A stretch of DNA of 64,000 nt from Parcubacteria group bacterium (GCA_041662245.1 JBAZSW010000002.1:89017-153016), one strand, 5' to 3'; numbered from the stretch's first letter, positions 36,001 through 61,084 are shown. Notes: generated from the sequence alone by a model not told the origin. A program made the numbers and translations.

Positions 36001-39000
36001 ACCAGTGTAAGTTTAGCGGAAGCGGGCACCAAAAATACGAGTATCCCGATAACTTTTAACGGAGGCAATCGTGATTTAGTTACCAACAATGAACAGTGGA
36101 ACTTGGCTTGTTATGCTAATGGAGTGACAGCGGATACGACATCAGTAATAATTACTGGTTGGACCACTGCGCAACAGGACTTTATTAAAATTTATACCCC
36201 TGTATCGACAACTGAAGTAGGGACGAGTCAAAGGCACGGGGGGAAGTGGGACAGCGGATTTTTTAGAATGGAGAACATTTCATACAGTCTGTATATATCA
36301 GTTGACAATATTGTCATTGATGGAATTCAATTCTACAATAGTAATAATGTTGGAAACTCGTCAGGCATTTATCTTACTGGTGCGGGAGGGATAGAAAACA
36401 TAACGTTTAGTGGAAATATTTTTAGGGGTTTGGGATCATATAGCGACGGCAATTTACATAGTGGTATTTCTGCTACGGGACTAACTCCGACAGCAGGTTC
36501 AGTAGTTAAAATTTATAATAACATTGTTTATGATTTTTCCGGTTCATCGCTAAGTGGAATAGGCATAAACGCTGTAAAAGGAACTCGAACATATTATATT
36601 TATAACAATACTGTGTATAATATTGTGGGTTATGGAATCAATAATTATAGTGCTGCGGCAGTGGTAGCTAAGAATAATATTGTGCAAAATTGTACCGATG
36701 GATATGTTGGAACTTTTACTAGCTCCGACTACAACATCTCCGACATCGCTGCCGACAACACTGGTGGGGCGCATGACAAACAAGCCACCGTGGCTTTCGC
36801 CGACACTGCCAACAAAGATTTTCACCTCGCTCCCACCGACACCGCCGCCAAAAATTCCGGCGTGGATTTGAGCGCGGATGCTAATTTGCCAATCACCACC
36901 GACATCGACGGCCAGACTAGAATCGCCACTCCCGGTTTTGACATCGGCGCGGATGAAGCGGCTAATGCCGTCTATTATTCCGTCGGCCAATCCACCGCGG
37001 ACTTGAAGACCGGCACACCGAATGTTTCCATTGCCAGCGGTACGGCCACTTTTGATGTGGGGCAAACTGCTAATATCGGGGTTGGGGATGTGATGATCGC
37101 TAACGCCATTTCATATTACATATCAAGCAAAACTTCCACCACCGTTTGGAATGTGGTTACGGTGACAGGCACCACTCCCACCAACATCACTTCCACGGCT
37201 GTCACTTCGATCAAGCACGTCTATTCTTCTTTGAATTCCGCCTCCTCCGGTGCGGGCACACTTCTTGGTACGAGTGATTTGTATACTAACAATTACCAAA
37301 TCAATATCCCATGTTATTATGACAGTGCCGCCGACACGACGGCGGTGACTGTGCAAAATTACACTACCGCTGTGCCCAATTATATTAAAATTTATACGCC
37401 GAATAATACGGTGACGGAGAGTAATAATTCGCAGAGGCATAGCGGGAAATGGGACACGGGGAAGTATAGCCTCTCTAACAGTGCAGTAGCAGATGCTTTA
37501 AGAATTAATAATAACAATGTTGTTATTGCTGGTTTACAGATTAATCAGCAGTATAATGCTGATTATTATGATGCAATCGCAGTGGGAGCTGATAATCGCA
37601 ATGCGATGATCTTGCAAAATATTCTAAAAGATTCTGGTGCGACCAATTCGGGGAACGCCGTTTATGTAGGCAATAGTACCAATACGTCAATTCCGAGTAT
37701 GATTTATATTGTGAATAATGTCGCTTATGGCTGGAAATCAGATGCTATAAATGTTGGTGGCGTTGGAGATAATGGGGCATTTGTGTACAATAATACATTA
37801 TATGGAAACGGCACCTGTGGCATAAATCAAAATAGTTATTATGATGTTGTCGCTAAAAATAATGTTGTAAATTCTAGTGGTACTTATGGTTATTGTACTT
37901 CTCATCTTTCAACGCCTTTAAATTACGCTACCTCTTCCACTAACAATATTTCCTCTGATGCCACCGCTCTGGGATCAAATTCCAAAATCAATGCTACCGT
38001 TAAATTTATTTCTACCACCAGTGGTAGTGAAGATTTACATTTATCTCCCGAAGATAAAATGGCTAGAGATTTCGGAGCAGATTTGAGTGTGGATGCCAAT
38101 TTTGCCTTTAGCACTGACGTTGACGGTTCTGTTCGGACAGTTTCTTGGGATGCAGGAGCCGATGAAACGGCGACACAAATCTTCTACAGTGTCGGACAGA
38201 ACACCACTGATCACAGCATCGGCAGTGGTGGTGCCACTTGTTCTACTACGGGGGCTTGCACCATCACTATTGCCGGTGGCATGGCTACTTTCAATTATGC
38301 CCAAACCGCCACCAATCTCGGAGTGGGTGATAAGGTGACTTACAATACCACGAGTGTGGCTTATATTACCCAAAAAATTTCTCAAACCCAATGGAAATTA
38401 ATGACAGCCACAGGTGGAGTGCCAGCCGACGTCGGCACGGCCCAGACTTTGAATTCCATTACGCATGCCTTTGCCTCATTGGAAGGTGCGGTGGATGCTG
38501 ATAATGCCAATGGTGCCTTTGATTCAACCCATCTCAACACCAAAGATTTGGTGATTGGAAATTACCAACTCAATGTTCCTTGTTATTATGACACAGGCGC
38601 GGATACGATGAATGTAATATTGAGATCTTGGAAGACAAGCACGCAGAATTATATCAAGATGTACACGCCCAATAATACTACTAGCGAAGTCAATCAGTCT
38701 CAGAGACACAACGGTAAATGGGACGCGACGAAATATTCCTTATCCAGTACGGGCCTTGGCTCAAATCTTTATACCGCGGATAATAGTACGGGCAATGGCA
38801 ATGTCATAATTGAGGGCATTCAATTCTACAGATATAGCGCTAGCAATTTTACATCTGTATTATCTCTGCCCTCGACTAAGAATTCATTCAAAAGAATATC
38901 TTCTAATATATTCAAAGGGGAAGTAAATTATTTATCCAGCACTTATGTCATTTCCGGAGGGGTAGCCGGAGCAGATGTTTATATCTATAATAATATTTTT

Positions 39001-39498
39001 CAAGATTTTAAGCCCGCCAGCGGATATGTCTGGGGATTTAATCCGAGTGCTGGCAATTGGTATGTTTACAACAATACTTTTTATAATTGTGACGTGGCGA
39101 TTAGACGCGGGGCATCGAATAATATGTATGTCAAAAACAACATCACCCAAAATTGTACTGACGGATATTATGGAACTTTTGACGCATCTTCCGATTATAA
39201 TATCTCTGACCTCGCTGCTGACACTGCGGGTGGCGTGCACGACAAACAAGCCACTGTGGCTTTTATTGACGCTACCAATAAAGATTTCTGTTTGAAGACA
39301 AGCGATACGGCGGCCAGATATGCAGGAATAAATCTTTCTACTGATAGTTATTTACCTTTTACAAATGACATTCGAGGCAAAGCTCGTCCCAAATCTCCCG
39401 ATGCTTGGAGTATCGGCGCTTGCGAAAATCTCGATTCTACAAAAGTAAAAATGGAAGGCACGCAGATAAAATTGGAAGGAGATGTGAAATTTGAGTAA
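27097..39498 (+). CDS. Giant secreted modular protein (4133 aa): signal peptide, 10 modules, no LamG tail
   Basis: Same signal peptide. Ten modules each end in the DFHL...TDIDG..R...WDIGADE motif. The last ends ...DAWSIGACENLDSTKVKMEGTQIKLEGDVKFE. Confidence 0.85.
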   Translation: MSKFQKLLLILVFTIIGLSSASLASAATQIYRSVASGVTATLATDSSHANTVTVTSGTATFSAALPDNIGVGDAVLIDTGGTDQTIDASDTLLFIHARASSTSYTLKTHTGATPSDISINDTYSIYRAYTSLSNAEAGTKNTNIPITFNGGDRNLVTNDEVWNFACYAAGTTADTAMTTIDSWTTDSTRYMRIYTPVSTTEVGTSQRHSGKWDESKYYISIGNNSAGIYYNIKYLVIDGIQIKVTSSDSSGSVGIQAYNSSIVAGGEITIKNNIVRGQLSGTDPGSAGIATSGYSPNSGVIKIFNNIVYDFARVTGTPQAIFFGAGDHYIYNNTIINCYGGLYKNGGSSAAVAKNNIVKGATDAYYGTFTTGTDYNATDGTDDIGTGSNNKISQTFSFIDETNDDFHLSSTDTAARNSGIDLATDTYSPFATDIDGAGRSATVNAWDIGADETATQIFRSVGPSATAVLESDTSHARTVTLTSGVATFSVALADDIGVGDAVLIDTGGTSNAIDASDTILFISARNSSTSYNLQTHTGAAPSDITINDTYSIYRAYTSLSLAEAGTKNTSIPITFNGGNRDLVTNNEEWNLACYANGVTADTTSVTVAGWTTAQQDFIKIYTPVTTTEVGTSQRHGGKWDMGKYNLTVDSGSWRAITNEVSYMTINGLQISKDCQNNNDSNAVRDQGVGGLVNISNNIIKETSTNSLTASQGVRKHWGSGTVLIWNNIIYGWHGTGNYVSGIVNASASAAYLYGYNNTIYDCNIGIRRDTGTIIAKNNITQNCTDGYSGTFDSSSDYNISDLASDNTGGAHDKQATVAFADTANKDFHLAPTDTQAKNSGADLSADANLPFTTDIDGQTRSATPGWDIGADEAANAVYYSVGQSTADLKTGSPNVAITAGVATFDVAQTGNIGVGDVVVANAISYYISSKTSTTVWNVVTVTGATPTNITSTAVTSIKHVYTSLNSAVSGASTLLGTTDLYTNNYQINIPCYYDSAADTTAVTVSGYTTAVPNYIKIYTPYNTTTESNNSQRHSGKWDATKYRLVTTLGNISVSYVNNVKIDGLQLESQATVARRVIIMIGSNMAISNNILRYSGAAPVEAIFCNSTQTNIDVWNNIVYGFANGGDGIYITNNNNGSARVYNNIVYGGTYGITTGNTDIIAKNNISYNNTTYDFSSGTFHSTSTNNLSKDATAPPLNTYYTSKTLAFTSTTAGAEDFHLVAADTDAINKGADLSADTNLAFSTDIDSQTRNLRSEGWDIGADEAATQIFYSVGQNTSDHKTGSPLVTVSGTTATFDTAQTATNMGVGDLVTYTGGTCYISAKTSTTVWSCLSVTGGAPTAATNASVTSIAHAFASLEGAVDADMATGAFDATHLNTKDLVAGNYQLNVPCYYDSGADTTAVVVRSWTTGAQDYIRIYTPVSTTTEVNQTQRHSGKWDSGKYNMLISSGASGKAIYVANQYIRIDGLQIKTVGYGGIWSNVIYGAKGQIISNNIIWGSGTFTAAGQGIGWFGNVASVSAYNNIIYGFTYAGSYGIRLDQYTQDKTPVVYNNTVYGCDTGILQDADAYYSNNIAYNNGVDFSGTSRAGSTNNLSKDGTATGTNAKINQTVAFTSTASGSEDFHLASTDTAAKNSGADLSADANLPFATDIDGASRNASINAWDIGADETATQIFYSVGQNTSDHKTGSPTVTVSGTTATFDTAQTATNMGVGDLVTYTGGTCYISAKTSTSVWSCVSATGGTPTVASGANVTSIAHAFSALSTALDADSISTSAGNSSHLNTNNLVTGNYQLNVPCYYDSGPDVGAYVRSWTTGAQNHIKIYTPVSTTSEANQTQRHSGKWDNTKYSINATGLGQNINSWNIDLVIEGLQIYKYAADGYTSIITVNPAAFSRISANIFKGDNNFGSAYGISGGSASLNVNIYDNVFQDFRSPSSYFWTINPAAGNWYVYNNTFYNCHIALRGISGMVAKNNIVQNCVDGYDGTFNSASDYNISDLASDNTGGAHDKQATVAFADTANKDFHLAPTDTAAKNSGADLSADAYLPFATDIDGQTRSATPSWDIGADEAANAVYYSVGQSTADLKTGTPNVAITSGVATFDVAQTGNIGVGDVMIANAISYYISSKTSTTVWNVVTNTGATPTDITSTAVTSIKHVYTSLNSASSGAGTLLGTTDLYTNNYQINIPCYYDGAADTTSVTVSGYTTAVPNYIKIYTPYNTTTESNNSQRHSGKWDDAKYRLVSASPTTVQLNSSYIMLEGIQLKNTNTTSGADTAIIYTSLNNANSLLTINKNIVVAQVSGVGTMYAFKDIYQTTKNAIFSNNSFYNITGGTAEDRAIIMDGGNFYIYNNTIYNAEAGLKITYSSTVIAKNNIVQGATDGYYGTFDSSSDYNISNLSSDTTGGAHDKQATVVFISTTAGVEDFHLALTDTAARNSGVDLSADTSFAFTTDIDSQTRNQNALGWDIGADEAATQIFYSVGQNTTDHKTGTPLVTVAGTMATFDTAQTATNMGVGDLVTYTGGTCYISAKTSSTIWSCISATGGTPTAVINASVTSIAHAFASLEGAVDAGTASGAFDASHLNTKDIMAGNFQLNIPCYYDSGADTTAVTVQSWTTGAQNYLKIYTPNNTTSEVNQTQRHAGKWDDTKYDLKISTNAHNMQISISYIHIDGLQIYQYADNSAKVSLYVYSPNTGIEISNNIIRGRGSYTTGTHLGINIATSNKIWNNIIYNFNVTGSVGINSTGSYTNQYIYNNTIYNCAVGIARSNATVILKNNIAYNNGTDYSGTFDASSTNNLSKDATAPPLNTYYINKTLAFTNVTSGAEDFHLATTDTDAINKGADLSADTSLSFTTDIDGAGRIAAVNAWDIGADETATQIYRSVAPSATAVLESDTSHARTVTITSGVATFSNALSDTIGVGDAVLIDTGGTDQTIDASDTILFISSRNSATSYNLQTHTGATPSDITINDTYSIYRAYTSVSLAEAGTKNTSIPITFNGGNRDLVTNNEQWNLACYANGVTADTTSVIITGWTTAQQDFIKIYTPVSTTEVGTSQRHGGKWDSGFFRMENISYSLYISVDNIVIDGIQFYNSNNVGNSSGIYLTGAGGIENITFSGNIFRGLGSYSDGNLHSGISATGLTPTAGSVVKIYNNIVYDFSGSSLSGIGINAVKGTRTYYIYNNTVYNIVGYGINNYSAAAVVAKNNIVQNCTDGYVGTFTSSDYNISDIAADNTGGAHDKQATVAFADTANKDFHLAPTDTAAKNSGVDLSADANLPITTDIDGQTRIATPGFDIGADEAANAVYYSVGQSTADLKTGTPNVSIASGTATFDVGQTANIGVGDVMIANAISYYISSKTSTTVWNVVTVTGTTPTNITSTAVTSIKHVYSSLNSASSGAGTLLGTSDLYTNNYQINIPCYYDSAADTTAVTVQNYTTAVPNYIKIYTPNNTVTESNNSQRHSGKWDTGKYSLSNSAVADALRINNNNVVIAGLQINQQYNADYYDAIAVGADNRNAMILQNILKDSGATNSGNAVYVGNSTNTSIPSMIYIVNNVAYGWKSDAINVGGVGDNGAFVYNNTLYGNGTCGINQNSYYDVVAKNNVVNSSGTYGYCTSHLSTPLNYATSSTNNISSDATALGSNSKINATVKFISTTSGSEDLHLSPEDKMARDFGADLSVDANFAFSTDVDGSVRTVSWDAGADETATQIFYSVGQNTTDHSIGSGGATCSTTGACTITIAGGMATFNYAQTATNLGVGDKVTYNTTSVAYITQKISQTQWKLMTATGGVPADVGTAQTLNSITHAFASLEGAVDADNANGAFDSTHLNTKDLVIGNYQLNVPCYYDTGADTMNVILRSWKTSTQNYIKMYTPNNTTSEVNQSQRHNGKWDATKYSLSSTGLGSNLYTADNSTGNGNVIIEGIQFYRYSASNFTSVLSLPSTKNSFKRISSNIFKGEVNYLSSTYVISGGVAGADVYIYNNIFQDFKPASGYVWGFNPSAGNWYVYNNTFYNCDVAIRRGASNNMYVKNNITQNCTDGYYGTFDASSDYNISDLAADTAGGVHDKQATVAFIDATNKDFCLKTSDTAARYAGINLSTDSYLPFTNDIRGKARPKSPDAWSIGACENLDSTKVKMEGTQIKLEGDVKFE

Positions 39499-40913: not shown

Positions 40914-41002
40914 GAATCGTAATTTCTAAATAAATATTTGTACTCAAATATTTAGAAGTGGAGACCTGCCTGCCGACAGGAATCTTAGATGAATGATAAA
41001 TC

Positions 41003-41215
41003 CTTAAGATAATTTTAAATTTCAAATTTAAAGTTTAAAATGAATATAAAAATATTAAATGATTAAAACAGATACGAAATATAATAAGAAAAAGATTGAA
41101 ATTAAAATTTATTCATTTAAAATTGATTTCAAATTTCAAATTTAGCCTTTAAAATTAGAATATTAAGATTTGAATCAAAATTCAAAATTTTAAATTAAAG
41201 TTTAAAAAGAAATAT
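41003..41215. repeat. Repeat family A (copy 8), followed by a short-form B element at 41224-41280
   Basis: Sequence identity to the other copies. Confidence 0.75.
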
Positions 41216-41623
41216 TTCTTCATGTCATTTCGACCGAATAAATATTTGTACTCAAATATTTAGAAGTGGAGAAATCTCAAATCAAGATCTCTGTGCCACC
41301 GCTAAAGCTTTAGCGACACGCGGTCCATGCCTAAATTTCTGAGTACCCCAGTTATGATAACGGGGCAGGCATAAATTCATTTAGTCGAGATGACAGGCCT
41401 CGATTATTTTGTCCTAAGGCCGTCTTAGTGACCGTTAGTGAAATTTTTGCTTGACAATTATCCAATATCTGATAATATAAACACTGACACGTAGCATGAG
41501 TTAAAATTAAATAGAAAATGTATCAGAGGCTTTCATTTTTCCCCCTTTATTCAAGCATTAGGAATGAAATATTAATTATAAAATTAACTCCTCTATTTTT
41601 GTGTTGGTACAAATAACTACATT

Positions 41624-41842: not shown

Positions 41843-41865
41843 CAAATTAATTTTAAATTTAGAAT

Positions 41866-41913
41866 TTCGAATTCCCGCCTGCAAACGCTGTAGCACTGCG
41901 GGCAGGTTAAATG
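41866..41913. repeat. About 45-bp element; an inverted copy lies at 48505-48548
   Basis: gaattcccgcctgcaaacgctgtagcactgcgggcaggttaaatg. Its reverse complement matches 48505-48548 at about 43 of 45 positions. Confidence 0.7.
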
Positions 41914-42002
41914 AATTTCAAATGTATTAATTCAAAAATTAGAAAATTAAGATTTGATTCAAAATTGGAAATTGGAAATTCAAAATTTTTTATAAAATAT
42001 AT

Positions 42003-42116
42003 ATGAAAGTAAGAGCATCAGTTAAAAAAATATGTGCTAATTGTAAAACCGTCAGACGCCGAGGGAAAGTTTATGTTATTTGTACTAATCCTAAGCACAA
42101 GCAAAGACAAGGATAG
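42003..42116 (+). CDS. rpmJ: Ribosomal protein L36 (37 aa; absent from the ORF track)
   Basis: [37 protein letters not shown] with a C-x2-C...C-x4-H zinc ribbon. Confidence 0.9.
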
Positions 42117-42261
42117 GATGTAGTTTTGTAGCTTGTAGTTTTTAGCTTTTTAGCAAAAAATAAAAAAGCTATTTTTTAAGAAGCTAATAACCTAAAAAGC
42201 TAAATATAAATCTAATACATCTAAGAAGCCAAGAAGCTAATAACCTAAAAAGCTAAATATT

Positions 42262-42711
42262 ATGTCAGAAGAAAAGAAAATTGAAGAAATTAAAGATGCG
42301 CCTATTGCCACAGAAGATGTCAAAGTTGAAAATGATGGGGCTCCTGTTAAAAAAGGAAAGCGGACTGTTTTTAAAGGTCAGGCGCATATTCAATGTACTT
42401 ATAATAATACAATTGTGACTATTTCTGATATGAATGGAGCAGTTTTGGGTTGGTCAAGCTCGGGAATGTTGGGATTTAAAGGAGCCAAAAAATCCACTCC
42501 TTTTGCCGCTACCAAAGTGGCTGCTGACGTTTCAGAAAAAGTTAAGAAGTTTGGTTTAAAAGAATTAATGATTTTTATAAAAGGTGTAGGAGGTGGACGA
42601 GAGTCAGCTGTACGAGGTTTGTCTGGTGCTGGATTTGAAGTGCTTTCTATTAAAGATATCACTCCTGCCCCACACAACGGTTGCAGAAGGAGAAAACCGA
42701 GGAGAGTCTAA
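42262..42711 (+). CDS. rpsK: Ribosomal protein S11
   Basis: AHIQCTYNNTIVTISD..G..LGWSS.G..GFKGAKKSTPFAA...ITPAPHNGCRRRKPRRV. Confidence 0.9.
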   Translation: MSEEKKIEEIKDAPIATEDVKVENDGAPVKKGKRTVFKGQAHIQCTYNNTIVTISDMNGAVLGWSSSGMLGFKGAKKSTPFAATKVAADVSEKVKKFGLKELMIFIKGVGGGRESAVRGLSGAGFEVLSIKDITPAPHNGCRRRKPRRV

Positions 42712-42856
42712 TCAGTTAAAAGTTCAAAATTAAAAATTAAAAGTTACAATTTAAAGTTAAAAATTGACAATAAAAACTTTGAAATGATAACTGCAACTTT
42801 TAACTTTGCGCTTTGAATTTTGAATTAACACATATAATATTTAAAAGTTAAATAAT

Positions 42857-42892
42857 TTACTAGTTACTAATTACTAGTTCCTAGTTACTAAA
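42857..42892. promoter_or_regulatory. Tandem TTACTAGTT(AC) direct-repeat motif upstream of rpsM; similar arrays at 43421-43470 upstream of rpsD and 45604-45640 upstream of rplM
   Basis: ttactagttactaattactagttcctagttacta; ttaccaatcac...ctagttaccaatcactagttaccagttacta; ttactgattactagttactgattactagttacta. Confidence 0.45.
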
Positions 42893-42897
42893 TAATT

Positions 42898-43284
42898 ATG
42901 GCAAGAATAGCAGGAGTAAATATACCCGATAATAAAAGAATAGAGATTGCTCTAACTTATATTTTTGGTATTGGAAAATCCATTAGTGGAGTTATTTTAG
43001 ATGAATTAAAAATTGATAAAAATATTAGGGCTAAGGATCTTACTTCTGAGCAGGTTAATAGTTTGAAAAATTGTATTGAGGATAAATATAAGATTGAAGG
43101 AGAGTTAAAACATGAGATTCGAATGAATATTCGAAGATTGAAAGAAATTGGTTGTTATAGAGGGATGAGACACCAAAAAGGTCTTCCAAGTCGCGGACAA
43201 AGAACTAAAACCAATAACCGAACGTTAAGAGGGAATGTTCGTCAGACGATGGGAAGCGGTAGAAGATCAGTGGAAAAGACATAA
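42898..43284 (+). CDS. rpsM: Ribosomal protein S13
   Basis: MARIAGVNIPDNKRIEIALTYIFGIGK...GCYRGMRHQKGLPSRGQRTKTNNRT. Confidence 0.9.
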   Translation: MARIAGVNIPDNKRIEIALTYIFGIGKSISGVILDELKIDKNIRAKDLTSEQVNSLKNCIEDKYKIEGELKHEIRMNIRRLKEIGCYRGMRHQKGLPSRGQRTKTNNRTLRGNVRQTMGSGRRSVEKT

Positions 43285-43477
43285 GACAATTAAAAGTTTA
43301 AAATTAAAAATTAAAAGTTACAATTTAAAGTTAAAAATTGACAACGAAAACTTTAAACTGATAACTGCAACTTTTAACTTTGTACTTTGAATTTTTAACT
43401 AATAAAGTTTAATCACAAAATTACCAATCACTGTTTTCTAGTTACCAATCACTAGTTACCAGTTACTAAATTAATAT

Positions 43478-44110
43478 ATGGCAAGAGATTTAAATTCAAG
43501 ATGTAAAAAATGTCGAAGAGCTGGAGAAAAGCTTTTTCTTAAAGGTGATCGTTGCACCTCAGTTAAATGCGCGATGATAAAAAAAGCTTATGCTCCGGGA
43601 GTGCATGGTAAAAAAATGGGCAGAGGGCTAAGCGAATATGGAAAGCAATTAGCTATGAAACAAAGAATTAAAAGGATTTACGGAGTTATGGAAAAACAAT
43701 TCCGAAAACATTTTCAAGATATTCAAAGAAAAGAAGGTATTACTGGAAATTTGTTAATGATAAGATTGGAAATGAGATTAGACAATGTCGTCTATCGGAT
43801 GGGTCTAGCTAGCTCTAGAAACGCCGCTCGTCAATTGGTTAACCATGGATTAATCAAAGTTAACGGGAGAAAATTGTCTGTGCCATCTGCTTTGGTAAAG
43901 GTAGGAGATAGTGTTATGGTAAGCGAGACCAAAAAAGAAAAAACTTATTTTAAAAACATCGCTAGCGCGCTAAAGAATAAAAAAGATGTTCCTTCTTGGA
44001 TAAGTATGGATGCTGTTAACTTTGAAGGAAAAATTTTGTCTACTCCGGATATAGCTAGCATTGGAATAAATGCTGATCCTCAATTGGTAGTTGAATATTA
44101 TTCTCGATAA
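43478..44110 (+). CDS. rpsD: Ribosomal protein S4
   Basis: N-terminal C-x2-C...C zinc motif and the S4 domain LDNVVYRMGLASSRNAARQLVNHGLIKVNGRK. Confidence 0.9.
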   Translation: MARDLNSRCKKCRRAGEKLFLKGDRCTSVKCAMIKKAYAPGVHGKKMGRGLSEYGKQLAMKQRIKRIYGVMEKQFRKHFQDIQRKEGITGNLLMIRLEMRLDNVVYRMGLASSRNAARQLVNHGLIKVNGRKLSVPSALVKVGDSVMVSETKKEKTYFKNIASALKNKKDVPSWISMDAVNFEGKILSTPDIASIGINADPQLVVEYYSR

Positions 44111-44162
44111 TAATTAGATTTTTAGATAATAAATTAATTCGTCTTTAATTAAAATTAAAAAT

Positions 44163-45158
44163 ATGCAATCAATAACATTGCCAAAAAAATCAAAATTTAT
44201 TGAAACTGGAGAAAACAGTGGAAAATTTATTATTGAGGATTGTTTTCCGGGATATGGCACAACATTGGGTAATTCTTTGCGTCGAGTACTGTTATCTTCC
44301 TTAGATGGAGCAGCGGCTACTGCGATTAAAATTAAGGGTGTTTCTCACGAGTTTTCTACGGTAGAAGGAATTCTTGAAGATGTAGTACAAATAATTTTAA
44401 ATGTTAAAAAACTTCGTTTTAAATCTTTTAGTGATGAGCCCGTAAGATTAAGTTTGAAATTTACTGGCAAGGGAGTGATTACAGGCAAAGATATTAAAAA
44501 AACTGCCGAAGTGGAAGTGATTAATACGGATCAAGTGATTGCCAATTCTACAAGTTTAAAAACTAATTTAGAATTAGAGATAGAAGTAAATAAAGGAATC
44601 GGCTATATTCCTGTAGAATTACAAGAAAAAAGAGACGAGGTTGATTGGATTTCTATTGATGCTATTTATACTCCGATGAAAAGAGTTAATTACGCTGTAG
44701 AAAATATGCGAGTAGGAAAAAGAACTGATTTCGAAAGAATTGTTTTGGAAATTTTTACCGATGGAACCGTTACTCCGACAGATGCTTTTAACAAAGCTGT
44801 AGGAATATTGGTAAATCAATTCTCCGTTTTATCTGAAGGTGTAGATCAAACAACTTCTAGCCAAAAGAAAAAAATTGAGGACTCAGGAAAGCCAGAAAGC
44901 TATGAGGCTGTCTTGGACAAGGAAGAAGAAAGTGTAGAAAAAGAAGTTAATGAAAATGAAAGTTTAAGTATCGATGATTTGAAAGGACTTTCTACTAGAA
45001 CAATTAATGCGCTTAAAGATAATAAGATAACCAAAGTTAAAGGTATTATCAAACTGACAACTGAAGAATTGGGTGCTTTAAGTGGAATGGGAGAAAAAGG
45101 TGTTAAAGAAATAAAGAAAGCTATCGGGATATTGGGATTGATATTGAAAAATAACTAG
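44163..45158 (+). CDS. rpoA: DNA-directed RNA polymerase alpha subunit
   Basis: N-terminal domain GYGTTLGNSLRRVLLSSLDGAAATAIKIKGVSHEFST and a C-terminal helix-hairpin-helix domain. Confidence 0.9.
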   Translation: MQSITLPKKSKFIETGENSGKFIIEDCFPGYGTTLGNSLRRVLLSSLDGAAATAIKIKGVSHEFSTVEGILEDVVQIILNVKKLRFKSFSDEPVRLSLKFTGKGVITGKDIKKTAEVEVINTDQVIANSTSLKTNLELEIEVNKGIGYIPVELQEKRDEVDWISIDAIYTPMKRVNYAVENMRVGKRTDFERIVLEIFTDGTVTPTDAFNKAVGILVNQFSVLSEGVDQTTSSQKKKIEDSGKPESYEAVLDKEEESVEKEVNENESLSIDDLKGLSTRTINALKDNKITKVKGIIKLTTEELGALSGMGEKGVKEIKKAIGILGLILKNN

Positions 45159-45178
45159 GCATATAACTATAAAGAAAT

Positions 45179-45544
45179 ATGAGACATTTAGTAAAAGGAA
45201 GAACACTCGGAAGAGAAAAGGCACAACGCGAGGCATTGATGCACGGTTTGGTTGCTAATTTAGTATTGAGTGAAAAAATTACTACTACTGAAGCTAAAGC
45301 TAAAGAATTGAAGCCTCTTATGGATAAGATTATTACCAAAGTTAAAAAAGCTGGAACTGATTCACAAAAGAAAGTTACTGTAATAAGAGAGTTAAGAAAG
45401 GATTTAAATGTTGCTTGTGTGAAGAAACTTTCGGGTGAATTTTTTAAAAAATTTGAAGGAAGAAATAGCGGTTATACTAGAATAATTAAATTGACTGAAA
45501 GAAAAAGTGATAGTGCCAAGATGGCAGTGATTGAATTTGTTTAA
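45179..45544 (+). CDS. rplQ: Ribosomal protein L17
   Basis: MRHLVKGRTLGREKAQREALM..L...L....I.TT.AKAKEL. Confidence 0.85.
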   Translation: MRHLVKGRTLGREKAQREALMHGLVANLVLSEKITTTEAKAKELKPLMDKIITKVKKAGTDSQKKVTVIRELRKDLNVACVKKLSGEFFKKFEGRNSGYTRIIKLTERKSDSAKMAVIEFV

Positions 45545-45649
45545 TATTTGCATCGAATAGTTAACGAATTAACGAATTGTAAATTACAAAAGTTTAAATT
45601 ATAATTACTGATTACTAGTTACTGATTACTAGTTACTACTAATAAATTT

Positions 45650-46039
45650 ATGGAAGAAAGAAAATATTATCAAATTAGCGCCCAGGGAAAAGTTTTAGGG
45701 AGATTAGCTACTGAAATAGTAAAATTTTTGAGTGGGAAAAATAAAGTTAGTTTTACTCCTAATATTGATGGAGGAGATTTTGTGGTGGTAACCAATTCTG
45801 ATGGGGTTATCGTTACAGGTAATAAAGCTAAAGATAAAAAATATTATAAATTTTCTGGCTATCCAGGGGGAATCAAAGAAATTAGTTTTGAAAAACAATT
45901 AGCTAGAGATTCTAGAAAATTAATTGAAGCCGCTGTTAAAGGAATGCTTCCTAAAAATAAATTAAGTAGCGCAATGATGACTAGGCTTTTGATATACAAA
46001 GATGAAGCGCAGGAACATAATATAGATTTTAAAATTTAG
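45650..46039 (+). CDS. rplM: Ribosomal protein L13
   Basis: YYQISAQGKVLGRLATEIVKFLSGK...PNIDGGDFVVVTN. Confidence 0.85.
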   Translation: MEERKYYQISAQGKVLGRLATEIVKFLSGKNKVSFTPNIDGGDFVVVTNSDGVIVTGNKAKDKKYYKFSGYPGGIKEISFEKQLARDSRKLIEAAVKGMLPKNKLSSAMMTRLLIYKDEAQEHNIDFKI

Positions 46040-46067
46040 TACCGCTTAGGTTTAATGAAAATTATTT

Positions 46068-46568
46068 ATGAATAAAGAAAAAACAACTGTAAAAAAATCT
46101 CCAGAGAAAAAAGAAATAAAGGCTAAAAAGCCAACTACGGGGAAAAAGATTGCCAAGATTTCTAAAAAGAATGATTATTTTTATGCTGTCGGAAGAAGAA
46201 AGACTTCTGTGGCTCAGGTTAGAATTTTCCCAAGCAATAAAGCAGGAGAAGAGGATTGCCAAGTAAATAATCGTGCTATGACTGAATATTTTTTAGGTAC
46301 AATCGCGCAAGCCACTTTTCTTTCTCCTTTTAAAGAAACGGGAACGACAGATAAATTTAAGGTGACTGTTTTGGTGCGAGGAGGAGGAATTAGCAGCCAA
46401 GTGGAAGCGGTTAGATTGGGAATTGCTAGAGCACTTGTGAAATTTGATGAAACTTTAAGACCAGTTTTAAAAGCTAATAAATTCTTGATGAGAGATTCTC
46501 GAAAGGTAGAAAGAAAGAAACCAGGACTTAAAAAAGCCAGACGTGCTCCACAGTGGGCGAAAAGATAA
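46068..46568 (+). CDS. rpsI: Ribosomal protein S9 (with a Lys-rich N-terminal extension)
   Basis: YFYAVGRRKTSVAQVRI...GGGISSQVEAVRLGIARAL...KKPGLKKARRAPQWAKR. Confidence 0.9.
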   Translation: MNKEKTTVKKSPEKKEIKAKKPTTGKKIAKISKKNDYFYAVGRRKTSVAQVRIFPSNKAGEEDCQVNNRAMTEYFLGTIAQATFLSPFKETGTTDKFKVTVLVRGGGISSQVEAVRLGIARALVKFDETLRPVLKANKFLMRDSRKVERKKPGLKKARRAPQWAKR

Positions 46569-46593
46569 GCGTTTAAAAAATTTACTTCTAAAA

Positions 46594-46622
46594 AACATTC
46601 GTATTCATGCGAGTGTTTTTTG
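46594..46622 (+). terminator. Rho-independent terminator after rpsI
   Basis: 8-bp stem AACATTCG / CGAGTGTT (one G-U pair), 8-nt loop, followed by a T-run. Confidence 0.55.
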
Positions 46623-46864
46623 ATGTTGTTATTAATTTCGAATTTAAAATTTTGAATTTCGAGTCAATTATGAATATTTGAATAATATATTGTGGAGGGC
46701 TTATTGGAAAAACTATTATTTAAGAATTAAAGAATTGGGATTTGATTCAAAATTTTAAATTCAAAATTCAAAATTATAAAAAATGTTATTTTTTATTATA
46801 TTTGCTAAATATACAGTATATGTTTATACTAAGAAATGGAATAATTAAACTTTATTAAAAAAAT

Positions 46865-48322
46865 ATGCGAGAAGATATTCTAAAAGCTAAGCTAGAGAAA
46901 CTGGCAAATCTGAGAAATGCCAATGTTGATCCTTACCCAGAAAAATCCCAAAGAACGCATTTTAACAAAGAGGTTCTGGATAATTTTGATAGTATTAAAG
47001 GAGAGGTTTTCTTAGTGGGAAGAGTAAAGTCTGTGCGACCGATGGGTGGATCATCTTTTGTGCATATCGAAGATGAAAGTGGCAAGATGCAATTATTCTT
47101 GAATAAAAATAATATCGGAGCTGATGAATATAAATTATTTACTAAAAATATTGAACTGGGAGATTTTATTCAAGTAAATGGAGATCTTTTTAAAACTAAA
47201 ACAGAAGAGAAAACTTTAGCCGTAAAGAGCTGGAAAATTTTGACCAAAAATATTCGTCCTATTCCTACGGAATATTATGGATTAAAAGATGTTGAGAAGC
47301 TTTTGAGAAAAAGGTATTTAGATTTGATGGGCAATGAGGAAACCCGAGAATTATTTCGAAAAAAATCTTTGTTTTGGCAGACAGTGAGAAAAGTTTTAAC
47401 TGATAACGGATTTTTGGAAGTGCAAACTCCTGTACTGGAGAGTGTCCCAGGGGGAGCAGACGCGGAGCCTTTTATTACTCATTATAATGCCCTAAACCAA
47501 GATTTTTATTTAAGAATTTCTCTAGAGTTGCATTTGAAGAGACTTTTAGTAGGAGGTTATGAAAAAGTTTTTGAGATTGGAAGAGTTTTTCGCAATGAAG
47601 GAATTTCTAGAGAACATTTGCAAGAGTTTGATCATATTGAATTTTATTGGGCTTATGCAGATATGGAAAATGGAATGGAGCTAACAGAAAAACTATACAA
47701 AGCTATCGCCAAGGAAATGTTGGGAGAAAAAATGATTTCCAATTGGGAGGATAATGAAATTAACTGGGGCGAATCTTGGCCTCGAGTAGATTATTTTACA
47801 GAGTTTAAAAAAGAAACAGAGATAGATTTGAGTGCAGATGTGACTGTAGCTGAGCTTAGAAAGAAGGCAGATGAACTAGGAATAAAGTATGATAAAACAG
47901 ATGGTAAAGGAAGAATGATTGACACCATTTATAAAAAGACAGTTCGCCAGAAATTGATTCAGCCTTGTTTTTTGGTGGGGCATCCGATTGAAGTTTCGCC
48001 CTTGGCTAAAAAAGATCCCACTACTCCTAACCGAGTTTTACGTTTTCAACCCATCGCTTGTAAAAGTGAATTAGGCAATGGCTTTTCGGAATTAAATGAT
48101 CCGATTGATCAAAGGGAAAGGTTTGAGGAGCAAATGAAATTAAGAGAGGCGGGCGATAGTGAAGCGCAAATGTTAGATGAAGATTTTATTGAAGCTTTGG
48201 AATATGGAATGCCACCAGCTTTTGGATTTGGAATGAGTGAGCGATTATTTGCAGTGATGATGGGTCGTTCAGTCAGAGAAACTGTTATTTTCCCATCAGT
48301 AAGAACGATAGAGGAGAAGTAA
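46865..48322 (+). CDS. lysS: Lysyl-tRNA synthetase (class II)
   Basis: N-terminal OB-fold anticodon-binding region followed by class II motifs FRNEGISREHLQEFDHIEFYWAY and GMPPAFGFGMSERL. Confidence 0.85.
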   Translation: MREDILKAKLEKLANLRNANVDPYPEKSQRTHFNKEVLDNFDSIKGEVFLVGRVKSVRPMGGSSFVHIEDESGKMQLFLNKNNIGADEYKLFTKNIELGDFIQVNGDLFKTKTEEKTLAVKSWKILTKNIRPIPTEYYGLKDVEKLLRKRYLDLMGNEETRELFRKKSLFWQTVRKVLTDNGFLEVQTPVLESVPGGADAEPFITHYNALNQDFYLRISLELHLKRLLVGGYEKVFEIGRVFRNEGISREHLQEFDHIEFYWAYADMENGMELTEKLYKAIAKEMLGEKMISNWEDNEINWGESWPRVDYFTEFKKETEIDLSADVTVAELRKKADELGIKYDKTDGKGRMIDTIYKKTVRQKLIQPCFLVGHPIEVSPLAKKDPTTPNRVLRFQPIACKSELGNGFSELNDPIDQRERFEEQMKLREAGDSEAQMLDEDFIEALEYGMPPAFGFGMSERLFAVMMGRSVRETVIFPSVRTIEEK

Positions 48323-48378
48323 TTTTAAATTATAAATTTCAAGTTTAAAATGAATAACAAATGATTAAATGACAAAAT

Positions 48379-48464
48379 GTAGAGACGTAATTCATTACGT
48401 CTAGATGTAGTAGAGACGCAATTCATTACGTCTAGAAGAAGAGACGCGATAAATCGGCGTCTCT
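48379..48464. repeat. Three tandem REP hairpins (GTAG-type)
   Basis: gtagagacgtaattcattacgtctag (48379-48404); tagagacgcaattcattacgtcta (48411-48434); agagacgcgataaatcggcgtctct (48440-48464). Confidence 0.75.
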
Positions 48465-48504
48465 GCGAATGTTTAAAAATTAAAAATTTGAGAATTAAGA
48501 TTTG

Positions 48505-48548
48505 ATTTAACCTGCCCGCAGTTGCTACAGTGTTGCAGGCGGGAATTC
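48505..48548. repeat. Inverted copy of the 41866-41913 element
   Basis: gatttaacctgcccgcagttgctacagtgttgcaggcgggaattc. Confidence 0.7.
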
Positions 48549-48574
48549 AAAATTTAAAATTCAAAATTATTGGG

Positions 48575-49537
48575 ATGTTGATAGATGATGTTACAATTAA
48601 AGTCAAAGCAGGCAAAGGCGGAGATGGAATGGTGGCTTTTGCTAAAACTCTGATGAATCAGGGACCAACCGGAGGAGATGGTGGAAGGGGCGGGAATATT
48701 ATTATTAGAGGAGTAAATGATTTGGGGGCATTGCGACCTTTTAAAACTAAAAAATTAGTAGCTGCTAAAAATGGTGGACAAGGCGAACAAAATATGAGAA
48801 CCGGAGCCAATGGAGCAGACGGAATAGTAGTTGTGCCGGTGGGAACATTGGTGCATGATTTGACTCATAAAAAAGATTATGAAATTAGTAAAATTGGAGA
48901 AGAAATTGTAATTTTAAAAGGGGGCAATGGCGGTTTTGGAAATTTTTATTTTCGTTCTAGCACTAACACCACTCCCGAGCAAGCCAACCCCGGTCAAATT
49001 GGAGAAGAGGCTCAGATAAGATTAGAATTAAAATTAATTGCCGACATTGGATTTGTGGGTTATCCCAATGTAGGGAAATCAAGTCTGCTTAACGAACTTA
49101 CTAATGCGTCAAGCAAAGTGGCTAATTATAAATTTACTACGTTAGAACCGCACTTGGGAGTTTATTATGAATTAATTTTAGCGGATATCCCAGGGATAAT
49201 TGAAGGAGCTTCGGAAGGGAAAGGTCTTGGACATAAGTTTCTCAAACACATCGAACGCACCAAAATATTATTTCATTTTATTTCAGCCGATAGTGAAAAT
49301 CCCTTGGAGGATTATAAAATAATCAGAGAAGAATTGGGAAAATTTAATAAAAAGCTTTTAAAAAAAGAAGAATGGGTGATCGTGAGTAAATCTGATGAAA
49401 AAAGTCCTGAGGAAGTTAAAAAAATTGTAAACAAGTTAAAGAAGAAAAACCCTCAAATAATTGCGTTATCTTTATTGGATGACAAAAGTATCGAGGGGGT
49501 AAGGAAGATTTTAAATGAAATAAAAAAGAATAAATAA
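48575..49537 (+). CDS. obg: GTPase Obg/CgtA
   Basis: Obg fold KAGKGGDGMVAF...GG.GG.GG; G-domain GFVGYPNVGKSSLLN, DIPGIIEGAS and VSKSD. The track ORF starts at an upstream TTG; the ATG is at 48575. Confidence 0.85.
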   Translation: MLIDDVTIKVKAGKGGDGMVAFAKTLMNQGPTGGDGGRGGNIIIRGVNDLGALRPFKTKKLVAAKNGGQGEQNMRTGANGADGIVVVPVGTLVHDLTHKKDYEISKIGEEIVILKGGNGGFGNFYFRSSTNTTPEQANPGQIGEEAQIRLELKLIADIGFVGYPNVGKSSLLNELTNASSKVANYKFTTLEPHLGVYYELILADIPGIIEGASEGKGLGHKFLKHIERTKILFHFISADSENPLEDYKIIREELGKFNKKLLKKEEWVIVSKSDEKSPEEVKKIVNKLKKKNPQIIALSLLDDKSIEGVRKILNEIKKNK

Positions 49538-49601
49538 TTTTGAATTTTAAATTTTGAATTTTAAATCAATTTTTAATGATTGAATGAAAAAATGGCGAAA
49601 T

Positions 49602-49630
49602 GTAGAGATGTGGCACTGCCACGTCTGTGC
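49602..49630. repeat. REP hairpin
   Basis: gtagagatgtggcactgccacgtctgtgc. Confidence 0.6.
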
Positions 49631-49766
49631 ATAATTTAATAATTAAGATATTTTTAATTAATTTTAAATTTAAAATTTAGCCTTTAAAATTAAGCAATCG
49701 TAAAAATAACAGGTTGCAATTTATTGAAGTATATTAAAATAATTTTAAAATTTAAAACGTAAATCT

Positions 49767-51156: not shown

Positions 51157-51226
51157 ATAGAATAAATCGGCATCTCTACATGATGTTTGATAAATATGTT
51201 GTAGAGACGCAATTTATTGCGTCTAA
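51157..51226. repeat. REP pair in inverted orientation flanking the RAYT 5' end
   Basis: cgatagaataaatcggcatctctaca (reverse) and tgtagagacgcaatttattgcgtctaaaa (forward). Confidence 0.7.
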
Positions 51227-51233
51227 AATAAAA

Positions 51234-51899
51234 ATGACAGACAAGTTCAAAAATAAATATAAAATAGATTCTACTCGTTTAAAAAATTATGATTATTCTC
51301 AAAATGGAATGTATTTTGTTACCATTTGCACTAAAGATCATAAGCATTTTTTTGGTGAGGTGATTGATGGAAAAATGATTTTAAATGATGTCGGTAAAAT
51401 TGTAGATAAATTATGGCAAGAAATTCCTAGATATTTCCCATTTGTAAAATTAGATATTTATCAGATTATGTCTAACCATATTCATGGGAATTTGGAAATA
51501 ATTCGAGACGATAATGTAGAGACGCGATTTATCGCGTCTAAAACTAACCATATTCATGGGAATTTGGAAATAATTCGAGACGATAATGTAGAGACGCGAT
51601 TTATCACGTCTCAAACAAACGGAGGTGTTGCTGGTGGAAGTAATCCGATGCTAAATCCAGATTCATTATCAAGTATTATTCGTTGGTATAAAGGTAGATG
51701 TTCATTTGAAATCAGAAAAAATATGAAGGGTGTAACTTTTGCTTGGCAACCTCGATTTTATGATCATATAATTCGCGATAATGAATCTTTGAATAAAATT
51801 CGTGAATATATAATTGAAAATCCTGAAGTGTGGGAAAAAGAAGGAGATAAGATAGAGAATAATTTTAATGTAGAGACACGATTTGTCGTGTCTAATTAA
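51234..51899 (+). CDS. REP-associated tyrosine transposase (RAYT, IS200-like Y1 HuH transposase) with a 72-bp in-frame REP-containing tandem duplication at 51474-51617
   Basis: HuH motif SNHIHGNLEI and C-terminal RAYT signature WQPRFYDHIIRDNESLNKIREYIIENPEVW. The gene is flanked and internally punctuated by GTAGAGACG...CGTCTCTAC hairpins. Confidence 0.8.
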   Translation: MTDKFKNKYKIDSTRLKNYDYSQNGMYFVTICTKDHKHFFGEVIDGKMILNDVGKIVDKLWQEIPRYFPFVKLDIYQIMSNHIHGNLEIIRDDNVETRFIASKTNHIHGNLEIIRDDNVETRFITSQTNGGVAGGSNPMLNPDSLSSIIRWYKGRCSFEIRKNMKGVTFAWQPRFYDHIIRDNESLNKIREYIIENPEVWEKEGDKIENNFNVETRFVVSN

Positions 51900-51925
51900 G
51901 ACGCGATGAATCGCGTCTCTACGGG
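51869..51925. repeat. REP pair (forward plus inverted) at the RAYT 3' end
   Basis: tgtagagacacgatttgtcgtgtcta and aagacgcgatgaatcgcgtctctacggg. Confidence 0.7.
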
Positions 51926-53165: not shown

Positions 53166-53229
53166 ATCGGCGTCTCTACAATGTATTTGATAGGAATCTA
53201 GAATGTAGAGACGTGATTTATCACGTCTA
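53154..53229. repeat. REP pair (inverted plus forward)
   Basis: aagacgcgataaatcggcgtctctaca ... tgtagagacgtgatttatcacgtcta. Confidence 0.7.
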
Positions 53230-53400
53230 AATAGAATATAGAAACATGATCTATCACGTCTAAATAGAATATAGAAACATGATCTATCACGTCTAAATAG
53301 AATATAGAAACATGATCTATCACGTCTAAATAGAATATAGAAACATGATTTATCACGTCTAAATAGAATTTAGAAACATGATTTATCACGTCTAAAAATT
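53198..53400. repeat. Tandem array of at least 5 33-bp REP-derived units (tagaatatagaaacatgatctatcacgtctaaa)
   Basis: Exact 33-bp periodicity with no spacers. The units derive from the adjacent REP with a decayed left arm. Confidence 0.8.
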
Positions 53401-60868: not shown

Positions 60869-61009
60869 CCTCGCTGAAGCTACTGCGAAGCGGGTCGGAA
60901 ACGAACCGACGACCTACACGTTACCTGCCCGAAATGCTTTGAGCCGTCTATCGGGATTGAACCGATGACCTACGCGTTACGAGTGCGTCGCTCCGCCTGC
61001 CTACGCCTG
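60856..61009 (-). other. Two degenerate tRNA 3'-half-like segments downstream of tRNA-Thr (anticodon-loop-like CTCGTAA, T arms ATCGG-TTCAATC-CCGAT and GTCGG-TTCGTTT-CCGAC). Neither has a matching 5' acceptor strand
   Basis: The minus-strand segments align to the 3' half of the tRNA-Thr (GAGCGACGCACTCGTAACGCGTAGGTCATCGGTTCAATCCCGATAGACGGC and ...GTAACGTGTAGGTCGTCGGTTCGTTTCCGACCCGCTTCG). No sequence complementary to AGACGGC or CCGCTTC is found 5' of them. Confidence 0.5.
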
Positions 61010-61082
61010 AGCCTACAATCGGACTTGAACCGATAACCTACGGTTTACGATACCGTTGCTCTACCAATTGAGCTATGTAGGC
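61010..61082 (-). tRNA. tRNA-Thr (anticodon CGU), no encoded CCA
   Basis: The minus strand reads GCCTACATAGCTCAATTGGTAGAGCAACGGTATCGTAAACCGTAGGTTATCGGTTCAAGTCCGATTGTAGGCT. Acceptor stem is GCCTACA / TGTAGGC, D arm GCTC..GAGC, anticodon stem ACGGT / ACCGT with loop ATCGTAA, T arm ATCGG-TTCAAGT-CCGAT. Confidence 0.8.
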
Positions 61083-61084
61083 TT

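Follow-up and report, generated by a model that had tools for sequence, protein, structure and literature searches.

A pair of GC-rich hairpins brackets the ribosomal block between infA and obg

The DNA stretch analyzed here (the window, 64,000 nucleotides of the Parcubacteria group bacterium GCA_041662245.1, JBAZSW010000002.1:89017-153016; a metagenome-assembled genome of the Parcubacteria/Moranbacteria) carries, next to a gene for an AAA_14/DUF4143 ATPase, the genes infA, rpmJ, rpsK, rpsM, rpsD, rpoA, rplQ, rplM, rpsI and lysS, followed by obg, whose true ATG is at position 48575. From infA to lysS, this is the gene content that an earlier reading made from the sequence alone (the sequence-only reading) had proposed. 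The GC skew here is strongly positive, and all genes of the block run along it. A short GC-rich palindromic unit, present in two inverted copies termed A and B, brackets the segment from rpmJ to lysS and is the subject of the present work.

The sequence-only reading had described the pair as an inverted repeat of about 45 bp. We could confirm both sequences, to within 3-8 nt of where they had been placed. In a gapped alignment, the 45-mer and the reverse complement of its partner show 42 matches, one substitution and two single-base indels, and similarity extends into the AT-rich flanks, to about 94 aligned columns in total. The discrete GC-rich unit, which lies slightly inside the repeat as first delimited, is 33 bp long and consists of two arms, CCCGCCTGCA and TGCGGGCAGG, enclosing a 13-nt centre. 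Copy A (41874-41906, plus strand) reads CCCGCCTGCA-AACGCTGTAGCAC-TGCGGGCAGG; the infA stop codon is located 31 nt before it and the rpmJ start 96 nt after it. Copy B (48511-48543) is on the minus strand, where it reads CCCGCCTGCA-ACACTGTAGCAAC-TGCGGGCAGG, 188 nt past the lysS stop codon and 31 nt ahead of the obg ATG. All differences between A and B are confined to the centre, both 10-nt stems being identical.

Each 33-bp unit forms a hairpin of its own, with a 10-bp stem that includes one C.A mismatch and one T.G pair; for both strands the fold energy is -15 to -19 kcal/mol, at z values of about -2 to -2.8. As each repeat folds by itself, the pair corresponds to two inverted copies of a palindromic unit and not to the two halves of one structure. 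A covariance model was built from 45 copies (36 nt) of other genomes only, with no window copies. When run on the 64-kb window, the model finds exactly A and B (E 1e-4 and 1e-5, respectively), which do not occur there by chance. Copy A scores 34.4 bits on the plus strand and 18 on the minus strand; copy B scores 40 bits on the minus strand and 12.8 on the plus strand. The far lower scores on the opposite strands indicate that the unit has a defined polarity.

Copies A and B are precise insertions in an AT-rich repeat

A and B occupy the identical point of a genome-specific AT-rich intergenic repeat. The 5′ flank of A (41848-41873, plus strand; TAATTTTAAATTTAGAATTTCGAATT) is part of this repeat and lies outside the element. 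The 5′ flank of B in element orientation (48544-48571, minus strand) is again this repeat, and it is 100% complementary to positions 49533-49560. A paralogous empty site is found at 49547-49572 (plus strand), where TTAAATTTTGAATT is directly followed by TTAAATCAATTT, with the junction intact and without hairpin. The joined flanks of B differ from this site by 2 mismatches, and further uninterrupted copies of the repeat, similar to the empty site, are located at 12617, 16015 and 4898. As the joined flanks of B match the uninterrupted repeat, the inserted DNA is exactly 41874-41906 and 48511-48543, without target-site duplication.

Relatives provide a second comparison. In L141/L142 (LysS 84% identical) the lysS-obg spacer is colinear and lacks exactly the 33 nt of copy B, the flanks being largely identical over about 40 nt on each side of the gap, and in more distant relatives the hairpin is absent from both spacers. 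A clean orthologous empty site was also sought for copy A; the infA-rpmJ spacers of the relatives are too short or too diverged to be aligned cleanly. Each window copy is hence a precise 33-bp insertion, with no target duplication, within an AT-rich repeat, and GC-rich islands in AT-rich spacers are explained as insertions.

The intergenic spacers of the window are full of periodic AT-rich repeats (AATTTTGAATTTTAAATTT...), for instance at 41004-41211, 46626-46800, 48314-48378 and 49529-49700, and the spacers of the ribosomal block are for this reason 100-300 nt long.

The bracketed block keeps its order and strand

Two inverted, near-identical sequences of 33-45 bp on either side of a gene block could be recombination sites, used by an invertase or by homologous recombination, and the sequence-only reading had contemplated that the 6.6-kb segment of ribosomal, rpoA and lysS genes might be invertible. 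With their flanks, A and B are similar over about 90 bp, in principle enough for a rare RecA-dependent inversion. However, the gene order in relatives speaks against it. In all those examined (L001, L003-L005, L139, L140, L141 and L137), with the hairpins present or absent, the block is unchanged in order and strand relative to its flanks, the conserved order being infA-(rpmJ)-S11-S13-S4-rpoA-L17-L13-S9-(at most one extra gene)-lysS-obg. The gene annotation of the window shows no recombinase or invertase gene at either repeat or within the block; the genes between the repeats all encode ribosomal proteins, rpoA or lysS, and those flanking them are the ATPase gene, infA and obg. An inversion would moreover set essential and highly expressed genes head-on to replication, as judged from the GC skew. 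Finally, the motif is a dispersed element present at hundreds of unrelated loci (see below), a finding that the sequence-only reading had itself named as one that would speak against inversion. We consider it extremely improbable that A and B are recombination sites, and the tempting idea of an essential ribosomal/rpoA block acting as a phase-variable invertible segment can be set aside.

Within the block, rpsK (S11) precedes rpsM (S13) at 42262-43284, an arrangement that is clade-wide (L001, L003, L139, L140); the usual order is the reverse, S13 before S11. One copy of a 116-nt AT-rich repeat follows each of these two genes (42713-42828 and 43287-43402, 91% identical).

The unit belongs to a family dispersed over two superphyla

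The pattern CCCGCCTGCA-N8-20-TGCGGGCAGG was searched in genomes, taking one genome per species. At least 120 loci were found, against about 14 expected by chance according to our own estimate, which assumes equal base frequencies. The flanks of these copies are unrelated, whereas their centres are clearly related (ACGCTGTAGCAC, ACGCTATGCGTAGCAT, TCGCTATGCGAAGCAT and TCAGCTATGCTGAAAGCAT are examples). Among the matches listed, 58 loci are labelled as Candidate Phyla Radiation (CPR)/Patescibacteria, from many classes, 36 as Planctomycetes-Verrucomicrobia-Chlamydiae (PVC) bacteria, namely Verrucomicrobia, Kiritimatiellia and Lentisphaerae, and 16 as low-GC metagenome-assembled genomes assigned to Gammaproteobacteria. 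There are a few others, some of which look like chance hits or mis-binned contigs.

In metagenomes the scan was restricted to 13-nt centres and again gave at least 120 loci. The commonest centre, ACGCTGTAGCAAC, accounts for 37 of the 122 matches listed and is one base off the centre of B; the centre of A, AACGCTGTAGCAC, recurs 3 times among the metagenome matches listed. A and B therefore represent two widespread subfamilies. Viral contigs (IMG/VR) contributed 11 stretches on 10 contigs, one of which carries four, while blastn of the 37-nt consensus against the PLSDB plasmids and the INPHARED phages gave no match. The counts of the genome and metagenome scans are lower bounds and their taxonomic proportions are samples. 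Altogether, units of 30-40 bp occupy more than 240 non-identical sites across the scans: the element is dispersed over hundreds of unrelated CPR/Patescibacteria and PVC loci and some viral contigs.

The ends of the element are near-invariant and deliberately imperfect. In 0.9 Mb, the arms are exact in 139 copies and carry 1-3 mismatches in fewer than 20; both non-Watson-Crick positions of CCCGCCTGCA...TGCGGGCAGG (one C.A and one T.G) are kept, and "repaired" perfect palindromes are essentially absent. When the whole unit is folded on itself, the mismatches are all of the transition type (G.T or A.C), as read directly from the sequence. The short centre is variable. In the 36-nt class it contains two overlapping inner helices of 4 bp, H1 (columns 11-14/18-21) and H2 (columns 16-19/23-26), each of them covarying: pair 11:21 is AU in 19 copies, UA in 10 and GC in 3, and pair 16:26 is AU in 16, GC in 8 and UA in 8. 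None of 500 shuffles reached the observed covariation score, which comes mainly from one pair per helix, in sequences that belong to related subfamilies. H1 and H2 are mirror images of each other under reverse complementation, so that the two strands could adopt one common shape, made up of a 10-bp stem, a 5-nt bulge, a 4-bp helix and a 3-nt loop. Folding the centre as one full-length palindrome was also considered, and this does no better than shuffled sequences.

Neither target-site duplication nor extension of the stem into the flanks was found at the family junctions. Only a weak target bias is apparent, with few T at position -1 and predominantly T or C at position +1. The GTTAAAT beside copy A could recall an integron attC site; this was ruled out, as the flanks are not conserved in the family.

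Many copies lie in frame inside essential genes

Open reading frames (ORFs) were called from stop to stop, and for this reason the statistics on copies within genes were restricted to low-GC contigs. In these low-GC genomes, 37 of 76 copies lie inside long ORFs. The length of the copy is a multiple of 3 in 37/37 of the in-ORF cases and in 21/39 of those outside ORFs (Fisher p = 6e-7), which indicates translation of the copies in genes and a selective filter on them. Antisense orientation prevails inside ORFs (52/67, p = 6e-6); intergenic copies show a weaker, 2:1 orientation bias and are often located just past a stop codon.

The host genes, recognized by eye from the translations, include those of IleRS, SecA, GyrA, SMC, RecG, PheT, LepA, ribonucleotide reductase, ArgRS and UvrC, as well as ribosomal protein S1, ATP synthase gamma and RecJ. 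GyrA and SMC were confirmed by alignment with solved homologues in the PDB, where the hairpin-encoded residues appear as an insertion. Depending on frame and orientation, one and the same DNA unit is translated as PARNASHSDAGG, LPAMLRIAMQAG or PPATL..ALRAG, with at least three combinations of frame and orientation being used. A conserved peptide motif, another candidate that we considered, is ruled out by this reading of the DNA in several frames and both orientations: the element exists at the nucleotide level. In L097 (about 6690-6746), a PheT gene that already holds an exact copy contains a second, degenerate in-frame hairpin (protein ...CPQSLRSSVGGRVGG...), a case of decay in place.

The location of A and B, both intergenic and with a stable RNA fold on the plus strand, would also suit host RNA elements at the infA|rpmJ... 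and ...lysS|obg boundaries, where they would punctuate the transcripts as terminators or attenuators or as hairpins for RNA stability or processing; terminator or processing hairpins had been suggested by the sequence-only reading. The short distance between copy A and the preceding stop codon and the many intergenic copies elsewhere at 3-130 nt past a stop codon fit such a function, and REPs (repetitive extragenic palindromic sequences) are known to affect mRNA stability (PMC3733652). The terminator scan made no terminator-like call at A or B, however, whose tails (TTAAATGAATTT and AATTCAAAATTT) have no T-run. The two copies are opposite in orientation relative to transcription, the same spacers of relatives do without hairpins, and about half of the family is inside ORFs and apparently translated. 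Nor does any Rfam family match: at the gathering threshold the whole window gives tRNA only, and at E<=10 nothing credible is obtained around copy A and only tRNA around the tRNA region described below. A host function of this kind is accordingly improbable. If A and B influence the infA-rpmJ or lysS-obg transcripts at all, this would be a side effect.

Copies nest in hairpin tips and can carry a tRNA gene

At locus L084, a copy is inserted within a copy that is itself within a copy, each insertion being at the apex of the host copy's centre and reversed in orientation; at a paralogous site there is a single copy. Further apex insertions are found in L211 and L192. Copies can also be arranged in tandem, as in L182 (579-677), where three perfect 33-nt hairpin copies follow one another head-to-tail without spacer. 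Degenerate copies are seen decaying in place.

A relative of the unit that bears cargo is present in the window itself (60992-61101, minus strand). Read on that strand from 61101 to 60992, it consists of CCTGCCCGCCA, TCGCCTAA, an intact tRNA-Thr(CGT) gene (61009-61082), CAGGCGTA and GGCAGGCGGA, CCTGCCCGCCA...GGCAGGCGGA being variants of the arms as read in reverse orientation. This 110-nt unit sits in the D-arm of another tRNA-Thr gene. If exactly these 110 nt are removed, 61126-61102 is joined to 60991-60942 and ARAGORN calls a tRNA-Thr(CGT). On the minus strand, the outer gene comprises a 5′ part from acceptor to D-loop (61102-61126) and a 3′ part (60942-60991), which gives an Infernal tRNA match of 19.7 bits, without D-arm. 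Judging from the three A.C mismatches in its acceptor and anticodon stems, the outer tRNA-Thr(CGT)-like gene is probably decaying. Beside it, a half copy (60923-60941, minus strand) is made of the typical inner tail AAGCAT and a one-mismatch 3′ arm (CAAAGCATT-TCGGGCAGG-T); the degenerate arm of L040, CCTGCCCGAAATGCT, is the same. The sequence-only reading had noted short cores of the motif around a tRNA cluster. The cores are indeed present, at 60923-60932 (given there as about 60921-60930, within the half copy) and at 61091-61101; the cluster turned out to consist of a single intact tRNA-Thr and pieces of tRNAs. Another such piece, a tRNA 3′ fragment, is found at 60884-60922, the whole nested region extending over 60884-61126 on the minus strand.

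Two other loci show the same architecture. In L193 (3683-3811), exact arms enclose a tRNA-Arg(TCT) gene, and the host of this insertion is a second tRNA-Arg(TCT) gene, interrupted in its anticodon loop. In L212 (5183-5429), a tRNA-Thr(GGT) gene between arm-like sequences interrupts a tRNA-Thr(AGT) gene, which also has small GC palindromes in its D-loop and T-loop. Precise removal of the insert restores the outer tRNA gene for ARAGORN in the window, in L193 and in L212, while standard tRNA finders report the inner gene only. Inner and outer tRNAs share the amino acid in all three cases, and as read from the sequences they differ at about one third of positions in L193 and the window, which means that no recent local duplication produced the inner gene. 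In L235, L251 and L260, arms of the same subtype enclose an AT-rich cargo of about 80 nt. In-frame location in essential genes, apex nesting, tandems, insertion in tRNA-gene loops and carriage of cargo are thus all features of the family, and among the cases that can be resolved there is a preference for hairpin tips, either the apex of the element itself or tRNA loops.

The covarying inner helices and the loop positions in tRNA genes, reminiscent of archaeal non-canonical tRNA introns, could alternatively be those of an element that works at the RNA level, for instance a structured RNA or a small insert resembling an intron, which would be removed or exert its effect once transcribed. Under such an explanation, nonetheless, in-ORF copies would not be expected to be always stop-free and a multiple of 3 in length, as they are and as translation predicts. 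Copies are found in both orientations relative to genes, an intact replacement tRNA accompanies each interrupted tRNA gene, suggesting that the outer gene is dead, and Rfam contains no matching family. We regard an RNA-level element as very improbable.

A RAYT-like gene in the window is associated with a different palindrome

The sequence-only reading had offered a second REP-like family as one possible identity of the repeats. This was the closest of its options: the unit is a dispersed small palindrome, but several defining features of REPs fail. The first such family of the window consists of GTAG-headed REPs (GTAGAGACGCGATTTATCGCGTCT), from which the GC-rich hairpin differs, and comes with a gene resembling those of REP-associated tyrosine transposases (RAYT). 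This IS200-type Y1/HUH gene (51180-51899, plus strand) is located between serS and a GH1 glycosidase gene, as in L137. It encodes the HUH motif NHIHG and the motif RFYDHIIR, and its Pfam Y1_Tnp score is 21.5 bits, under the 23-bit cut-off. GTAG-headed REPs are at 51087, 51201, 51516, 51588 and 51870 (plus strand), and others are at 51899-51922 (minus strand), 48379-48464, 53205-53393 and 22482-22505; they surround the gene and interrupt it in frame, being translated as VETRFIAS.

With this gene 2.6 kb downstream of B, one could take the 33-bp unit for a genuine REP/REPIN member mobilized by the RAYT-like transposase of the window. The palindrome of the unit is short and imperfect, with a fixed difference between its two half-sites that has a parallel in the Y and Z REP types of E. 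coli, and the unit lacks a target duplication, as REPs do. REPs within genes are also reported (PMC3733652). Against this, the RAYT-like gene is flanked and interrupted by GTAGAGACGCGATTTATCGCGTCT and not by the 33-bp unit, which has no GTAG or CGTC head. REP/RAYT pairs are described as lineage-specific and vertically inherited, whereas identical arms of the unit occur in two superphyla. Other copies, over 1.8 Mb, are without a linked RAYT-like gene. Mobilization of the unit as a true REP by this transposase is, in our judgement, unlikely.

The RAYT-like gene contains an internal tandem duplication of about 72 nt. One of the GTAG-headed REPs is inside an ORF of 3186 aa, one of three giant ORFs of the window (5008-12540, 16365-25925 and 27097-39498; 2510, 3186 and 4133 aa). 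These have 42-48% GC, versus 31-34% for the other genes, and are interleaved with four AAA_14/DUF4143 ATPase genes (2360, 13129, 14824 and 39573) and a Bro-N domain gene (4037).

Related palindromes in the window and elsewhere

A loop-less GC palindrome of 20 bp, CCTGCCTGCCGGCAGACAGG, with one C.A mismatch, is inserted at 12725-12744 between GGAGA and AATCT of a repeat that starts TGTCATTTCGACCGAATAAATATTTGTACTCAAATATTTAGAAGTGGAGA. A second copy is at 16123-16142 and a shortened one at 40965-40980, and an empty site is found at 41268-41277. At about the same place of a homologous repeat, L139 has a CCTGCCCGCC...TGCAGGCGGG hairpin, and the 20-bp palindrome is possibly kin to the 33-bp element. 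In L031, a palindrome of the CCTGCCTGCCGGCAGACAGG type lies beside a hairpin copy.

The spacer that separates infA from the AAA_14 ATPase gene holds an element (41224-41400) some 160-175 nt long with inverted ends TGTCATTTCGAC...GTCGAGATGACA, which may be a miniature inverted-repeat transposable element (MITE) or a structured RNA. Its homologue in L139 (12695-12857) carries the CCTGCCCGCC...TGCAGGCGGG hairpin, and ends of a related kind (GTCATTYCGAG) are found on both sides of hairpin copies in L009, L015 and L070. L194 (8511-11711) contains a perfect 31-nt inverted repeat beginning with CCTGCCCGCC (CCTGCCCGCCGGACGTGTCCGTCGGGACGCG), which brackets a 3.2-kb segment with a UvrD/PcrA-like helicase and is thus a further GC-rich inverted pair around a housekeeping gene.

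A palindromic insertion element that would be moved in trans

Taken together, these results make it highly likely that each of the two arms of the inverted repeat is an independent and complete copy of an insertion element, which is palindromic, GC-rich and 30-40 bp long and would be a selfish, REP-like mobile DNA. We propose that the element would be non-autonomous and moved in trans by a conserved enzyme able to recognize the folded hairpin or cruciform, probably in the form of single-stranded DNA. A trans-acting, structure-specific enzyme would explain why the arms are conserved in their asymmetry, why the inner helices covary so that either strand can fold alike, why no target is duplicated and why hairpin tips are preferred, and the fixed C.A/G.T positions together with the double covariation argue for recognition of structure. 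A transposase of the HUH/Y1 type is our best guess and would be the most economical candidate; no linkage was found. As a speculation, the versions with cargo may survive in essential tRNA genes by bringing a replacement with them.

Several observations weigh against this interpretation. No candidate for the mobilizing enzyme was found among the window and the loci searched: tblastn with the RAYT-like protein over 1.8 Mb detected only the ortholog and one weak match near other copies, and the genes between inverted copies in L069 and L126 are unrelated genes or high-GC noise, with no transposase. Likewise, no long autonomous version with the arms at its ends was found, the search giving only degenerate partners, nested copies, AT-rich cargo of about 80 nt and tRNA cargo; arm pairs located kilobases apart look like chance. 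The 64-kb window has only two full copies, plus one copy with cargo and one half copy. Both orientations are present on one replication arm of the window, which the simplest model of lagging-strand single-stranded DNA does not predict. Selfish DNA does not usually keep 20 nt exactly conserved from phylum to phylum, and such conservation could reflect a host function. Labels of metagenome-assembled genomes can be wrong, and mis-binning (L091 being an example) may inflate the list of taxa. Lastly, A and B could have originated by duplication of a repeat that already carried the hairpin instead of by two insertions; the match of their centres to two different widespread subfamilies speaks against this.

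Arm-string, peptide and topic searches of the literature, which were not exhaustive, gave chance hits or general papers on REPs, Rickettsia palindromic elements (RPEs) and GC clusters, and no description of the unit. It is conceivable, though we hold it rather less probable than its opposite, that the family constitutes an undescribed cross-phylum class of 30-40-bp palindromic mobile DNA, with asymmetric ends, insertion in hairpin tips, "self-compensating" homing with tRNA cargo and a conserved structure-specific enzyme. If the family is undescribed, it would provide a compact marker of gene flow among CPR, PVC bacteria and their viruses, and would point to an enzyme that recognizes a 10-bp stem with fixed C.A and G.T mismatches. 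It would also account for insertions of 10-13 residues in essential proteins, which would otherwise be taken for lineage-specific loops in annotation and structure prediction, and for broken or nested tRNA genes that tRNA finders miss. With its three independent cases, the tRNA-inside-tRNA architecture would represent a novel means by which mobile DNA can settle in a target that is essential and conserved.

Comparison with known systems

RPEs are selfish elements of about 100-150 bp. Like the unit, they are palindromic insertions found in frame in conserved protein genes and apparently translated; unlike it, they are CGTC-tagged and occur in Rickettsia only, the unit being 30-40 bp long and cross-phylum. 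In PMC3733652, RPE-4 and RPE-6 are placed within the CGTC REPs.

The REP/REPIN sequences and their RAYTs, as they are presented in PMC3733652 and PMC3116915, resemble the unit in being imperfect palindromes of 20-40 bp, dispersed and often located just downstream of genes. Occasional intragenic copies, no target duplication, a fixed difference between half-sites and a presumed movement as single-stranded hairpins are further points in common, and the unit is, like them, a short palindrome in many dispersed copies. In contrast to REPs, its ends are CCCGCC.../...GGCAGG, with no GTAG/CGTC head (GTAG is found only inside some subfamily centres), and no cognate RAYT flanked by the unit was found. 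Intragenic location is far from occasional (the 37 of 76 copies of low-GC genomes), the 10-nt arms are identical in CPR and PVC phyla and on viral contigs, one copy can be inserted at the apex of another, and a tRNA gene can be carried between the arms.

The GC clusters of yeast and fungal mitochondria (GC42; PMC4478555) are GC-rich palindromes of about 30-45 bp in very AT-rich DNA, with stems under tighter constraint than loops, merging and shuffling, horizontal spread and a mechanism still unknown, all of which is reminiscent of the unit. They differ in being mitochondrial and mostly intergenic and in duplicating an AG target, whereas the unit is bacterial or viral, causes no duplication and is often intragenic.

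MITEs are also non-autonomous and dispersed, with inverted terminal sequences, and the cargo-free and cargo-bearing versions of the unit share their ends; a length of 50-500 bp, target-site duplications and a recognizable parent insertion sequence (IS), which characterize MITEs, do not hold for the unit. The ends of IS200/IS605 elements are imperfect hairpins recognized as single-stranded DNA, with no target duplication and with a bias in strand or orientation. Unlike the unit, they depend on a left and a right end that are distinct and on a fixed target of 4-5 nt located 5′ of the insertion; for the unit, neither such a target nor a linked TnpA gene was found. The unit is therefore not a member of the REP family as defined, it is not a MITE and it is not in Rfam. 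What it does show are the general hallmarks of a mobile element, namely precise presence or absence at orthologous and paralogous sites, and unrelated flanks.

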